In this document: piece by piece, positions 1,292 through 6,522 of the stretch
Numbering within the stretch: the stretch's first letter is position 1
Layout: every line of letters begins with the position of its first letter
IMG/VR virus record: IMGVR_UViG_2531839178_000023
Reading direction: 5' to 3' (one strand)
DNA: 15,696 nucleotides
DNA from: a virus
Lineage: Duplodnaviria > Heunggongvirae > Uroviricota > Caudoviricetes
Program-made: the position numbers and the translations under genes
The notes under the pieces: model-generated
Seen by the model: the letters and a program-made list of their open reading frames with translations, nothing else
What the model was told of the DNA's origin: nothing
Databases searched by the model: none

Positions 1292-1654
1292 ATGTTAAAG
1301 CTATTTGCAAAGTACACCTCTATTGGTGTACTGAACACCCTTATACACTGGGTGGTTTTTGGTGTTTGTATCTATGCCGCGCATACAAACCAAGCTATGG
1401 CGAACTTCGCAGGTTTCATAGTAGCTGTAAGCTTTAGCTTCTTCGCGAATGCAAAATTCACATTCAAAGCATCGACTACAACGATGCGTTACTTGTTATA
1501 CGTGGGATTCATGGGAACCTTGAGTGTTGTCGTCGGGTGGGCTGCTGATAGATGTTCACTTCCTCCAATTGTCACTCTTGTCACCTTCTCCGCCATCAGC
1601 CTGGTGTGCGGTTTCGTCTATTCAAAGTTCATTGTCTTTAGGGATGCGAAATAA
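1292..1654 (+). CDS. gtrA: GtrA, small membrane flippase subunit for bactoprenol-linked glucose (120 aa)
   Basis: 120-aa hydrophobic protein matching recalled GtrA/YfdG sequences ([24 protein letters not shown]...). Its stop overlaps the start of the next gene (TAATG), as in gtrAB operons. Confidence 0.85.
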
Positions 1655-1833
1655 TGAAGATATCTCTGGTCGTTCCTGTCTTCAATAAAGAAGAAGCGAT
1701 ACCAATTTTTTATAAAACGGTACGTGAATTCGAAGAGTTGAAGCCATATGAAGTGGAAATTGTTTTCATAAATGATGGAAGCAAAGACGCTACGGAGTCA
1801 ATAATTAACACTTTGGCTGTTTCTGATCCGCTA
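1654..1833 (+). pseudogene. gtrB: gtrB 5' fragment (first 60 codons of bactoprenol glucosyltransferase), cut by IS630
   Basis: [60 protein letters not shown] is the GT2-family GtrB N-terminus. The frame is broken after ...SDPL at the IS630 terminal repeat and resumes in frame at 3003. Confidence 0.85.
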
Positions 1834-2899
1834 AATAGCTGCGCTTAATACCGCTACACTTTTGCCAGTCCATGTTTGCCAGTCCATGTTTGCCTCCGGG
1901 GAATGGGCTGACGGTTTCCATAAAATGGCGAACTTTTTTCAACAGTTGCCACATTGAGCGGCACTGATGATTACGCGTTATTGTGTCGTGAAGTGCCTGC
2001 CATAGCCGTTCAACATGATTCACCCATGGCGAGTAAACCGGCTGATAAATGACCCTGAACTTCGGGTTCTCCTTCAGCCAGCTCTGTGTTTCCCGGCTTT
2101 TGTGGATAATGTAGTTGTCCACGATCAGCGTGATGGTTTTCGCCCGACGCTATGTCGCTTTAAGCCGCTTCAGCAGGCTGATGAACAGCGCCGAACTTTT
2201 GCTGTTGCCGCCCACATAGCTGACTTTACCTGTCCCGCTGTGCAGCGCTCCGGCCAGATAATATTTTTCATTCTGTCCCGGCGTGACCACCCGTTTTTGC
2301 TGTCCGCGCAGTTGCCAGTCCGCACCGATTTTGGGATGAAGATGGATATCCACTTCATCTTCATAAAAGACCGGATGCTCTGCGCTGCATTCGTCCAGTG
2401 CTTTATGGATTGCTGCCATCTTTTCATCTTTATGCGGGTCACGGATACGCAGAGTTGGCGCAGCCCTTCGCCACACAATCCCCGCAGACGGCAACCAGCG
2501 GCGAACGGTTCCGGCATTTAACTGGCAACCGGTTATCTCATTGATTTTTATTGCCAGCAGTTCTGTACTCCAGCGTGAACGCTGGTAGCCAAAGTCGCCG
2601 GGAGAATGTTTTACCAGCTCACGTAACAGTGTGCAGATATGCTCAAACGGCCAGCGACGGGCACGCCCGGCAGGTAATGATTTCAGTCCCTCAACACCCG
2701 ACTGCGTGAACCAGTTAATCCAGCGTCCAACAGAGGAACGGGCGCAGAAGAGCGTTCTGGCAACGTCGCTGACACGGTCGCCCCGGTGCAGCATCAGCAT
2801 GGCAGTCAGTCTGCGGGCATAATTTTTATCGTGTGTTTTATGGATGGCTTTCTGCATCAGGCGTCGTTCGTCACGGGAAATTGGTGCTATGATCGGCAT
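1805..2899 (-). pseudogene. IS630 transposase with an in-frame TAG stop at codon 250 and a 14-bp tandem duplication near the 3' end
   Basis: ORFs 2150..2899 (249 aa) and 1805..2122 (105 aa) are in the same frame, separated only by TAG at 2150-2152. The 14-bp unit TTGCCAGTCCATGT is repeated in tandem at 1862-1889, changing the C-terminus (...GKHGLANMDWQKCSG... instead of the recalled ...GKHGLAKV). Confidence 0.8.
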
Positions 2900-3000
2900 T
2901 GCTCAGTCCGGTTGGTGATTTGTTTTGATTTGGCGATTGATCAGATCGCACAATCCGGGCTAAGTTCCCTCAAAGTGATCTACTATTCCGCGCAGCTATT
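1834..3000 (-). mobile_element. IS630 copy, 1167 bp, inserted into gtrB at a CTAG target with TA duplication
   Basis: Terminal inverted repeats AATAGCTGCGC at 1834-1844 and their reverse complement at 2990-3000. Flanking TA at 1832-1833 and 3001-3002; removing the element restores CCGCTAGTTGTTCCG, encoding the expected GtrB residues P-L-V-V-P. Internal ORFs match IS630 transposase. Confidence 0.85.
1862..1889. repeat. Perfect 2 x 14-bp tandem duplication (TTGCCAGTCCATGT) inside IS630
   Basis: Read directly: 1862-1875 is identical to 1876-1889. It accounts for the element being 1167 bp rather than the recalled 1153 bp. Confidence 0.85.
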
Positions 3001-3002
3001 TA

Positions 3003-3743: not shown

Positions 3744-5355
3744 TGCGATTTATTAACATAACAACTATACTTTCTTTATTAATAATGTACGTATTGACAT
3801 CTGTAATATCATTGCATACCCCTATGCATTCAGATGACTACACGTATGCAATTACTGGCATTGGAATCGAGTCACATTTTAAGCACTATTTTACATGGAG
3901 TGGACGCATAGTAGCAGATTATGTGAGTGGTCTGTTACTGAGTATTAATCACACCTACCGCTCACTGATTAACGCCGCGGCACTTCCAATATTGTCTTTG
4001 TTGATCGCTAAAATTTCCTCTTATTTATTCGAGCAAAAGAGATACCAAACAGCCTTGATTGGTATTTTTGTTTACTTAACATACTGGCTATCAAATACCA
4101 ATCTTGGGCAAACAACATTTTGGGTTGTTGGCTCGGCCAATTATATCTGGACTAATATTTTCATCTGCCTTTTCTTTATGCTTATATGCAGGAAGGTTTA
4201 CGCTGAGGACAAAAAAACAATACAATAATTATCTGTATTGTAGGTGTTTTTGCAGGATGTTCTAATGAAAATACGGGATTTGTAGCGGTACTTTTTCCTC
4301 TATACCTTGCATTATGTAATTATATAAATAATAAACGTATAACAAAGGAACTTATTTTTTATACCATATCTTCTGGCATAGGTTATTTATTGCTAGTAGG
4401 CTCTCCTGGGAACAAAGAAAGAGCAAAATATTTCACTTACTGGTACGACACGCCATTCATTGAAAGGCTGAAGGAGCATCTTTATCATAGAGTTCCCGAT
4501 ATGATTTCTCAATTATGGATATCGTTATTAATTATTACCATTCTACTGGTTATTTACGCTTTTAATAAAAGACCCGAGAATAAATGTATTAGCATTGTGC
4601 ATGCTGTATTTTTTATGGTTTGCGCCCTCATCAGTGTAATTATTATGGTAGCGTCGCCAACCTATCCGCCACGTGCTGGCAATGGAACATTAGTATTCTT
4701 GCTGATTGCTATATCATTATTACTGAATGCCATTACCCAAACAAAAAATGGAAAGATACTGTCAGTAAGTTTACTGATAGTCCTCACTTTGTATTTTGTA
4801 CCTTCATATATGGATATGAAAAAGACATACGCAATGGCATCGATGCAGGATGAGGTAAGGCAGAAAATAATTCAGGAAAACTTAAAAAAAGGTGCTAAAG
4901 AATTTGCCATTCCTGACTTTTACTTTGGGAAAATGCTCACCCCAAGCCAGAAATTTGATACATTCCATTCAGATGTAGGCTATGGTAAGTTTTATGGTGT
5001 ACATAAAATTTATAAGGCTAAATCAAACTTTGATTACTCCATAGTTAATTTTGCTAAATACTATAATATTCAAAAACAACTCATACCTGCTAAAGTTTAT
5101 CTTATCGGGCTCTATATGGATCCCACAACAGGTTCCATAATATTGAAAACTGATCGTTCTATTACTGCTTACAATTATATTCACGGACCTAAAATATCTA
5201 TTGATGTATATTATAAAAATAAAACATCACCAATTAAGTATGAGTACTGGCCTGAGTCAACCATATTATCATACTATAGCTGGACAAGTTTTTCCGTTAC
5301 TCCAGGGGAGATAGAAAGAGTTGTTATAAGCCCAAGAGATGAAAAAAAGAATTAA
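3740..5355 (+). pseudogene. GtrS-like serotype-specific glucosyltransferase, polytopic membrane protein, split by a -1 frameshift at an A7 tract
   Basis: ORF 3740..4228 (162 aa) starts with an ATGA overlap on the gtrB stop. The downstream frame is open from 4207 and runs into ORF 4390..5355. The only overlap between the two frames (4207-4225) contains AAAAAAA at 4211-4217; one extra A would give a single ORF of about 538 aa. Very AT-rich and hydrophobic, in the position of the third gtr gene. Confidence 0.6.
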
Positions 5356-5365
5356 CCCACATTTC

Positions 5366-5394
5366 ATTATTATTGTAACTTTATTTAGTATAAT
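5366..5394 (+). promoter_or_regulatory. Candidate sigma70 promoter for the acyltransferase gene: consensus -10 TATAAT at 5389-5394 with a weak -35
   Basis: Perfect TATAAT hexamer 55 bp upstream of the ATG in an AT-rich intergenic region. The best -35 at 17-bp spacing (ATTATT) is poor. Sequence inspection only. Confidence 0.25.
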
Positions 5395-5448
5395 GGGTGC
5401 GTTCTATCGCGCCCTTGTTTAAATCAAACACCGGAGTAACTAATAGCT

Positions 5449-6522
5449 ATGAAAAGATTAGAACTCACTGACTATGCAAGATTTTTTGCAGCAATGATGG
5501 TGGTATTGTTTCATTACACTTTCAATGGGATAGCAAATGGTAAAATTAGCTCCATACCAATGGACAATGACATAGCAAATATTACTAAATATGGTTATTT
5601 GGGGGTTGAGTTGTTCTTCATGATAAGTGGCTATGTAATATTTTACTCAGCAAAAATGAGAACTGCATCCCAATTTGCATTTTCCAGAGTATTACGTTTA
5701 TTCCCATCTTATTGGTTTGCGGTAATATTCACATCAGTGTTTATTTATTTTTTAGGGAATGAAAAGATAACAACAGACATAAAGACAACATTAATTAACC
5801 TAACAATGCTGCAATCATTTTTAGGGGCTAAGGATGTTGATGGTGTGTATTGGACGCTAATATTTGAGCTTAAGTTTTATTTTATCATATTCGTATTTCT
5901 TCTTCTCGGACTTCAAAGTAAACTTGATCTATTAATAAAAACATGGGCGTTAATGATATTTATTATTAACATTAGTAACCTTGGAAACTACCCTTTACTT
6001 AGTGGTTATTTCTCATACTTCATTGCTGGTGCGCTTCTGTCCATAGCTAGGGATACAAAAAGTATTATAACATACACCTTGTTGTTAATGATGTTTTATT
6101 GTAGCATTACTTTTTCTATTAATCATGCGAACATTGTCAACTTAAAAGAAAACATCGATTATAACACAACCGTTACTGGGGTACTTATTAGTCTATTCTT
6201 TTTGTTTTTCTTATTTCAAAACACTAAATATGCACAAAATCTAAGCCTCCCTTTATCAACGATTTTAGGAGCCATTGTTTACCCATTGTATCTTTTGCAT
6301 GCGCATATAGGGTACATGTTACTCGATAAGTTCGCTAATGGATCAAATAGAACATTATTAACTGTGATTATAATTTTCTTTGCTATCACTATCGCCTATT
6401 TAACTCATGTTATTATAGAGAAAAAATGCAGCCCAACTTGGAAATATTTATTTGGCTTATTTGTAGCAAAACCGATAGAAGGAATAGAAAAAAGATTATA
6501 CAAAAAAACTGAAGAATCATAG
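5449..6522 (+). CDS. Family-3 membrane acyltransferase (357 aa), probably an Oac-like O-antigen O-acetyltransferase
   Basis: Polytopic hydrophobic protein with acyltransferase-3 hallmarks: N-terminal R...FHY, the VELFFMISGYVIF motif and the WTLIFELKFYF motif. It sits between the gtr cluster and the tailspike gene, where phage Sf6 carries oac. Followed by a strong terminator. Confidence 0.7.
   Translation: MKRLELTDYARFFAAMMVVLFHYTFNGIANGKISSIPMDNDIANITKYGYLGVELFFMISGYVIFYSAKMRTASQFAFSRVLRLFPSYWFAVIFTSVFIYFLGNEKITTDIKTTLINLTMLQSFLGAKDVDGVYWTLIFELKFYFIIFVFLLLGLQSKLDLLIKTWALMIFIINISNLGNYPLLSGYFSYFIAGALLSIARDTKSIITYTLLLMMFYCSITFSINHANIVNLKENIDYNTTVTGVLISLFFLFFLFQNTKYAQNLSLPLSTILGAIVYPLYLLHAHIGYMLLDKFANGSNRTLLTVIIIFFAITIAYLTHVIIEKKCSPTWKYLFGLFVAKPIEGIEKRLYKKTEES

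Follow-up and report, generated by a model that had tools for sequence, protein, structure and literature searches.

The 15,696-nucleotide viral sequence IMGVR_UViG_2531839178_000023 (the window, by which we mean that whole stretch) carries four genes, gtrA, gtrB, a gtrC-type gene, and a gene for a membrane acyltransferase of the AT3 family (here called AT3), between an integrase gene and a convergent tailspike gene. Very probably, these genes make up the lysogenic-conversion cassette of a P22/Sf6-like prophage, now defunct, at argW, built as one gtrA-gtrB-gtrC-AT3 unit, in which the glucosylation arm is off and AT3 is intact. An earlier sequence-only reading of positions 1292–6522 had placed these genes in the moron slot of a P22/Sf6-type prophage, between integrase and tailspike. 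That placement was confirmed, and phage Sf6 has the same order, int-oac-tailspike.

The window is an exact match to Shigella boydii contig AKNA01000064.1 (assembly GCA_000268145.1). The 5′ part of gtrB reads into an insertion sequence (IS), and its 64-amino acid (aa) product was found on a single NCBI contig, the same one. In the source contig, fadL, mlaA, yfdC, and tRNA-Arg(CCT) lie upstream of the window, followed by int, so the element is an argW prophage, and the window is a remnant of a P22/Sf6-like prophage at argW of S. boydii. The host lineage is most likely the S. boydii serotype 15 reference lineage. We take the AKNA assembly to be strain 965-58; the sole support for this assignment is that AKNB is 4444-74. 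The features of the cassette are as follows.

1292–1654, + strand: gtrA, intact, 120 aa, flippase for undecaprenyl phosphate-linked glucose (PF04138, E = 1.3e-13)
1654–1833, + strand: 5′ fragment of gtrB, codons 1–60 (PF00535 profile positions 1–50; open frame 1654–1848)
1834–3000, − strand: IS630 copy splitting gtrB, 1167 bp (1153 bp plus a 14-bp internal tandem duplication)
3003–3743, + strand: 3′ fragment of gtrB (PF00535 profile positions 72–167; open frame 3048–3743)
3740–5378, + strand: gtrC-type serotype-specific transferase gene, 546 aa when intact (PF19528/DUF6056, GT_STM0557_N; phrog_20513)
5379–5448, + strand: gtrC–AT3 spacer, with TATAAT at 5389–5394, a hairpin at 5395–5414 followed by TTGTTT, and a GGAG ribosome-binding site
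5449–6522, + strand: AT3-only membrane acyltransferase gene, intact, 357 aa (PF01757; phrog_3333), predicted surface-polysaccharide O-acetyltransferase
6523–6555, both strands: bidirectional intrinsic terminator between AT3 and the tailspike gene, with a 15-bp stem and A/T runs on both sides

Insertion of IS630 in gtrB and the state of gtrC

The stop codon of gtrA overlaps the start of gtrB (TAATG), and gtrB and gtrC overlap in ATGA, which indicates an operon. The exact gtrA protein occurs on 107 contigs. The limits of the IS630 copy were fixed by alignment to an annotated copy (L013) and to uninterrupted gtrB. The alignment of gtrB to the best Escherichia coli locus (L002), which is 99.7% identical to window positions 3001–9977, breaks at 1833. 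The target is CTAG, and the TA is duplicated at 1832–33 and 3001–02, giving the exact junctions C-TA-[IS]-TA-G. Removal of the element in silico restores an open 306-aa GtrB, a GT2 bactoprenol glucosyltransferase with three substitutions relative to L002. The IS630 copy is 99.4–99.7% identical to annotated IS630 (99.7% apart from the 14-bp duplication). Its transposase (helix-turn-helix/DDE_3, 343 aa if intact) is defective, with Y250 replaced by a stop codon (TAG) at 2150–2152; the 14-bp duplication, in which 1861–1874 repeats 1875–1888, alters the C-terminus. The IS630::gtrB insertion, which had already been noticed in the sequence-only reading, recurs in two data sets and can be regarded as secure. 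With gtrB split in this way, the glucosylation arm is switched off. Of the four cassette genes, only gtrA and AT3 are intact in the S. boydii copy as sequenced.

The third gene, called gtrS-like in the sequence-only reading, is indeed out of frame in the window, but through two 1-bp deletions rather than one frameshift. Relative to L002, one A is missing from an A3 run at about 4219–4220 and another from an A8 run at 5342–5348, leaving open pieces at 3740–4228 and about 4219–5355 (listed as an open reading frame at 4390–5355), both of which match PF19528. Restoring both A residues gives a GtrC identical over all 546 residues to the E. coli L002 protein. Both deletions are absent from three related loci, L032, L039, and L041. 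Of these, L032 is an independent short-read Logan assembly of run ERR200314, for which a supplementary table gives the strain as NCDC 965-58, the reference strain of S. boydii 15. L032 starts at the right end of IS630, with a junction to gtrB identical to that of the window, and over about 7 kb the two sequences differ only at the two single-A positions in gtrC. By contrast, the contigs of run SRR059778 reproduce the deletions (162-aa product), and they break inside a T6 run at 4355–4360.

It is more probable than not that both gtrC frameshifts are homopolymer sequencing errors of the assembly, which would leave gtrC intact and IS630 in gtrB as the sole true glucosylation lesion, one that another prophage's gtrB could complement. 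The ERR200314 assembly, with the same IS630::gtrB junction and an intact gtrC in an otherwise identical 7 kb, argues for this, as do the perfect identity of the repaired GtrC to an E. coli protein and the contig break in the T6 run, which is expected of reads that are noisy at homopolymers. However, the first deletion lies in a short A3 run, which is no classic error site, and elsewhere in the window the reading frames of int, IS2, and IS30 are unbroken, so that insertions and deletions are not a general fault of the assembly. In addition, AKNA is only presumed to be 965-58. The description of the glucosylation arm as doubly inactivated is not secure, since it rests on frameshifts that are absent from the independent assembly.

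The acyltransferase

AT3 matches PF01757 with 91.5 bits, against a cut-off of 31, and its residues 8–319 align with profile positions 5–324 of 326. The protein is identical to S. boydii protein P0122. The motifs R/K-X10-H in the first transmembrane helix, FFXISG, and RXXR are essential in OafA and Oac (PMC7448272). All are present in AT3, as R11-x10-H22, FFMISG (56–61), and R80-VL-R83, and they are invariant in 30 homologues. The AlphaFold2 model (mean predicted local distance difference test score, 91.6) is all-helical, with about 10–12 long helices and no SGNH or other extra domain. The gene is intact, as the sequence-only reading had held.

AT3 was compared with characterised O-antigen acetyltransferases. 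AT3 and Oac of Sf6 belong to the same broad PHROG family, phrog_3333, and share 31% identity over the N-terminal 172 aa; the C-terminal halves gave no BLASTP alignment. With OacD, there was no meaningful alignment. Judged by these alignments, AT3 is not an orthologue of Oac or OacD. A tblastn search of 50,697 phage records with AT3 found only matches of about 32–35% identity, in Halomonas, Erwinia, and Pseudomonas phages, and the nearest relatives outside Escherichia are about 50% identical. A P2-like prophage carries a 54% identical homologue (L014, 7001–8086, from SRR4734554) as a moron, flanked by the genes for tail-fibre assembly and the sheath. Searches for hints to the substrate returned little: Foldseek of the model against the PDB gave only unrelated transporters with TM-scores below 0.2, the BFVD gave one 637-aa viral protein that is uninformative on substrate, a profile search of PDB sequences gave no match, and NCBIfam holds no model for AT3, gtrA, or the tailspike protein. 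AT3 is predicted to act on a surface polysaccharide, the main argument being its position beside receptor-binding genes in two unrelated phage types.

The cassette in related genomes

E. coli draft genomes carry AT3 at or close to 100% identity, always in fourth place in the order gtrA (120 aa)-gtrB (306 aa)-gtrC (546 aa)-AT3 (357 aa), convergent with a gene for a 762-aa tailspike. These intact cassettes lie in P22-like prophages at at least three chromosomal sites. The four genes are thus one ready-made cassette and not two chance neighbours. Relative to L002, the window has 13 substitutions, lacks the two A residues in gtrC, and has lost 4 bp, (TA)2, from the tailspike gene. This last loss changes (TA)7 to (TA)5 at 6853–6862 and frameshifts the gene, giving 673 aa instead of 762 aa. 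The length of the repeat differs by lineage: the intact E. coli prophages have (TA)7, every S. boydii-lineage copy, including the window, has (TA)5, and Shigella dysenteriae has (TA)4. A megablast search of 5,426 complete E. coli genomes with the gtrC plus AT3 DNA gave no match, and 50,697 phage records contained no comparable sequence.

Sister copies were retrieved through the truncated tailspike and gtrA proteins and compared base by base. They fall into three groups.

Group 1, the window and the SRR059778 contigs: gtrB with IS630 inserted; gtrC with two −A frameshifts; AT3 intact; (TA)5
Group 1, L032 (ERR200314): same IS630::gtrB junction; gtrC intact; AT3 intact; (TA)5
Group 2, L028, L030, L031, and L034: gtrB intact, no IS630; gtrC intact in L028 and L031, with +A in the A7 run in L030; AT3 with a −A frameshift; (TA)5
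Group 3, L039 and L041 (S. dysenteriae): gtrB, gtrC, and AT3 intact; (TA)4

The AT3 lesion of group 2 is the loss of an A from an A5 run at the window equivalent of about 6057, with products of 206 and 143 aa (L028, L030, and L031); L034 spans only the tailspike gene and the 3′ part of AT3. In group 3, L039 is S. dysenteriae serotype 2 strain 155-74, and L041 is a second assembly. Window positions 1–1833 are 100% identical to both. At argW in these loci (6710–13705), the prophage is reduced to int-gtrA-gtrB-gtrC-AT3, with all four conversion genes intact, plus about 450 bp from the 3′ end of the tailspike gene. An intact IS630 stands in CTAG at the window equivalent of 7009/7010, the prophage is gone beyond it, and a second IS630 lies upstream near fadL. 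The AT3 variant of the S. dysenteriae lineage is found on 87 contigs. S. boydii 15 and S. dysenteriae 2 form one core-genome multilocus sequence typing subcluster, S2d, with different O antigens. Given this shared subcluster, the simplest reading is one ancestral lysogenisation followed by lineage-specific decay.

The AT richness of the gtrC-type and acyltransferase genes had been taken to suggest separate acquisition. This appears correct for the deeper history: AT3 looks like an add-on, because argW prophages with a 77–78% identical GtrC, which have a 71% identical tailspike, carry no AT3 gene. In the S. boydii lineage, however, all four genes appear to have arrived together, as one cassette. 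Between gtrC–tailspike spacers with and without AT3, the DNA is too diverged in alignment to define the insertion boundaries. In P22-like prophages at the torT site (L038, 11498–12667; L044, 11527–12465), the genes for a 545-aa DUF6056 GtrC and another tailspike enclose a different AT3 gene, 27% identical. The pairing of gtrC with AT3 thus seems to recur among podoviral prophages of E. coli.

Function and fate of the cassette

From what is known of these protein families, the intact cassette would work as follows. GtrB would transfer glucose to undecaprenyl phosphate on the cytoplasmic side, GtrA would flip the lipid-linked glucose to the periplasmic face, and the DUF6056-type GtrC would move it to a specific position of the O-antigen repeat. 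AT3 would take an acetyl group from acetyl-CoA in the cytoplasm and carry it through the inner membrane to a sugar hydroxyl of the same polysaccharide. Glucosylation and acetylation together would change the receptor that the tailspike of the phage itself recognises and would thereby keep out superinfecting phage.

The sequence-only reading suggested that the locus may now confer acylation rather than glucosylation. This is possible by analogy, since there are direct precedents in Shigella flexneri, where disruption of gtrB, gtr(type), or oac by an IS or a stop codon is documented to make serotype and genotype disagree. For example, isolates of genotype 1b in which an IS disrupts gtrB and oac is kept type as 3b, an acetylation-only phenotype. 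Several observations weigh against the same outcome here. The AT3 gene is frameshifted in sister strains and so is not obviously under selection in the S. boydii lineage, and the cassette need not be built for the host's present serotype 15 O antigen; both weaken the acylation-only reading. It is gene position only that points to the O antigen as the acceptor of AT3, and the homologues in Serratia and Mixta are stand-alone chromosomal genes with uninformative neighbours. The candidate promoter that had been proposed for AT3 was not borne out: a consensus scan found no sigma-70-like site in 5356–5448, where a lone TATAAT stands without an acceptable −35 element, and nothing in the gtrC–AT3 spacer or in the spacer upstream of gtrA (1159–1291). 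Promoter-like matches in the region are fewer than in shuffled sequences (11 vs 17.4 ± 4.9). If AT3 depends on read-through from a gtr promoter, the oppositely oriented IS630 could cut its expression. Finally, GtrA and GtrB are exchangeable between prophages (PMC3259042), so that, should gtrC be truly intact, glucosylation could be rescued by another gtrB copy in the genome. We put the chance that AT3 still acetylates something in its S. boydii host well below even, at roughly one in three.

The prospect that in S. boydii 15 the cassette as a whole is no more than a neutral relic, built for another O antigen or useless once the prophage died, with AT3 unhit by chance and unexpressed or lacking an acceptor, is only a little short of even. 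Among copies that share the tailspike deletion and the right-hand IS boundary, independent lesions are spread over all the larger genes: gtrB::IS630 in the window and L032, gtrC +A in L030, and AT3 −A in L028, L030, and L031. Every frameshift lies in an A run of an AT-rich gene, as slippage predicts, no promoter was detected for AT3 in the scan, and the cassette matches at most one of the differing O antigens of S. boydii 15 and S. dysenteriae 2. Against such a relic, the 1,074 bp of AT3 are free of inactivating changes, and its motifs are preserved. In S. dysenteriae 2, moreover, the cassette alone survived IS630-mediated loss of the prophage, which together with the 87 contigs that carry its AT3 variant hints at usefulness in at least one lineage. 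Because the sister strains show the opposite state, gtr genes intact and AT3 frameshifted, neutral decay is favoured over selective retention, and the reciprocal losses in S. boydii 15 fit such decay better than a switch to an acetylation-only function.

AT3 might instead act on the glucose added by GtrABC, or need it for recognition, in which case the loss of gtrB would also silence acetylation and the locus would confer nothing. AT3 is always directly downstream of this GtrC type, in 10 E. coli and 2 S. dysenteriae loci, and the closest GtrC relatives that lack AT3 have the diverged tailspike (71% identical), as if specificity modules co-vary. Nevertheless, we regard this dependence as unlikely. 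Oac and OacD modify backbone sugars independently of glucosylation, and double and single mutants of 2457T give distinct serotypes. According to a title cited in an E. coli O-antigen review, the E. coli O112ac polysaccharide is the S. dysenteriae type 2 polysaccharide minus O-acetylation. That would suggest acetylation without extra glucose in type 2, although we infer the tie to the AT3 gene. Less probable still is a target other than lipopolysaccharide, such as enterobacterial common antigen, capsule, or peptidoglycan. The AT3 family spans many acceptors (PMC7448272), NCBIfam lacks a specific model for this protein, and its nearest homologues outside Escherichia are orphan chromosomal genes. 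However, AT3 has gtrC on one side and, on the other, the tailspike gene of a podovirus type that is specific for the O antigen, its 54% identical homologue adjoins P2-type tail-fibre genes, it shares a PHROG family with Sf6 Oac, and at 357 aa it lacks the SGNH domain typical of OatA-type peptidoglycan enzymes.

A serotype 2 strain keeps the cassette intact though the rest of its prophage is deleted, which makes AT3 a candidate for the acetylation of type 2. We suggest, tentatively and from co-occurrence only, that intact AT3 may be the O-acetyltransferase of S. dysenteriae type 2 and that the reciprocal losses in S. boydii 15 may make unrecognised O-antigen sub-variants. If so, AT3 would explain why the type 2 polysaccharide is O-acetylated and the otherwise identical one of E. 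coli O112ac is not. Side-chain glucosylation and O-acetylation of the O antigen decide Shigella serotype, vaccine epitopes, and phage susceptibility, and few of the responsible genes have been assigned outside S. flexneri. The cassette pairs a DUF6056-type GtrC with a previously uncharacterised AT3 clade and is a candidate modifier for the S. dysenteriae 2/S. boydii 15 clade, in which the natural knock-outs (gtrB::IS630, gtrC frameshift, and AT3 frameshift) and the intact cassette make a set that could be compared chemically.

Comparison with known systems

The combination of glucosylation and acetylation is not new. Phage SfII carries both modifications on one prophage, and both are active in S. 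flexneri 2a. Its order, int-gtrA-gtrB-gtrII-ISSfl9-oacD-tail genes, is that of the window: the glucosylation operon next to int, then an AT3-family gene, with an IS in the region. The two differ in that SfII is, in this region, not a P22-like podovirus like the present prophage, has tail-fibre assembly genes in place of the tailspike gene, and has both arms functional. GtrII of SfII has no detectable similarity to the GtrC of the window. In Sf6, the same slot holds int, a conversion gene (oac), a terminator, and the convergent tailspike gene, with attP upstream of int, and Oac is also an AT3-only enzyme. However, Sf6 has no gtr genes, and the acceptor of Oac is rhamnose I of the S. flexneri backbone. 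In P22 and S. flexneri, gtrABC is likewise an operon with overlapping start and stop codons and a variable, low-GC (guanine plus cytosine) third gene at the end. The gtrA and gtrB DNA of the window is 84–90% identical to that of SfII, SfV, and Hf4s. Its third gene is of the DUF6056/GT_STM0557_N type, whereas other argW prophages have the Glucos_trans_II type (L036).

Escherichia phage Hf4s, a P22-like podovirus, is the best phage match for int-gtrA-gtrB (90% identity). Its gtr cluster has been shown to add lateral glucose and to block readsorption. Hf4s has another GtrC and no AT3, and O-acetylation in its host comes from wclK in the O-antigen cluster. In the S. flexneri cases cited above, the phenotype was measured by serotyping, whereas the window is known from its genes alone, and the S. 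boydii typing scheme includes no prophage-borne modification. The genomic decay itself is ordinary, consisting of IS insertions and slippage frameshifts, as documented for S. flexneri serotype conversion.

Signals and base composition

The terminator after AT3 was upheld as a strong, two-way hairpin at 6523–6555 (ΔG −24.3/−24.4 kcal/mol, z about −6 (−6.1)) that lies between the convergent AT3 and tailspike genes and is common to both. The hairpin at 5395–5414 is weaker (ΔG −16.4 kcal/mol, z only −2.15). It has a 7-bp, GC-rich stem and a T-rich tail, directly follows the TATAAT, and might act as a partial terminator or belong to the 5′ untranslated region of AT3. The gtr genes of P22 are controlled by a four-GATC Dam/OxyR switch. 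The int–gtrA spacer has one GATC, at 1234, and a second lies at 1157, which is not the paired-GATC arrangement of the P22 type.

The GC content of int is 0.478, that of gtrA 0.441, that of gtrC 0.341, and that of AT3 0.314, in agreement with the AT richness reported for the last two genes. The contrast with the tailspike gene holds only in part, because the low-GC tract runs on into its receptor-binding 3′ end (0.386 for 6557–7300). This fits a specificity module that is exchanged as a block.

The remainder of the prophage

Outside the cassette, the window contains the following features.

1–1158, + strand: tyrosine integrase gene int, adjoining argW (Pfam PF00589, PF22022, PF13356)
1159–1291, + strand: int–gtrA spacer, presumed gtr regulatory region, 133 bp, GC 0.398
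6557–8841, − strand: tailspike gene with the P22 head-binding N-terminus (PF09008; open frame 6820–8841)
9978–12400: IS3-family element in gp16, with orfB at 9986–10825 (−) and orfA at 12027–12377 (−)
10956–12107: transposase of an intact IS30 inside the IS3-family element
12528–13034: ssb, early-left operon remnant
13048–13341: abc2 anti-RecBCD gene, early-left operon remnant
13571–14476 (orfB) and 14434–14844 (orfA): intact IS2 between abc2 and ead
from 15352: ead/ea22, early-left operon remnant

The int DNA is about 95% identical to int of the HK620/Sf6 type. P22-like (Lederbergvirus-type) markers in the window are the PF09008 tailspike, the phrog_770 gp16-type protein, PF11043 (abc2), PF00436 (ssb), PF13935 (ead), and int. 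The position of int beside gtrA could be taken as a sign of an unintegrated or rearranged phage. We rejected this, as attP of Sf6 is upstream of int, the order there is int-conversion gene-tailspike, and the source contig reads yfdC-argW-int. An int gene, conversion genes, and a convergent tailspike gene are the normal Sf6-type layout, with no rearrangement.

No head, lysis, replication, or immunity genes were found in the window in the open reading frame listing or the profile scans. The prophage is dead, because the tailspike gene is frameshifted; in addition, gp16 is truncated and most of the genome is deleted. The gp16 ejection-protein gene is cut at 9977 by the IS3-family element, and the same right-hand IS boundary ends all S. 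boydii-lineage contigs.

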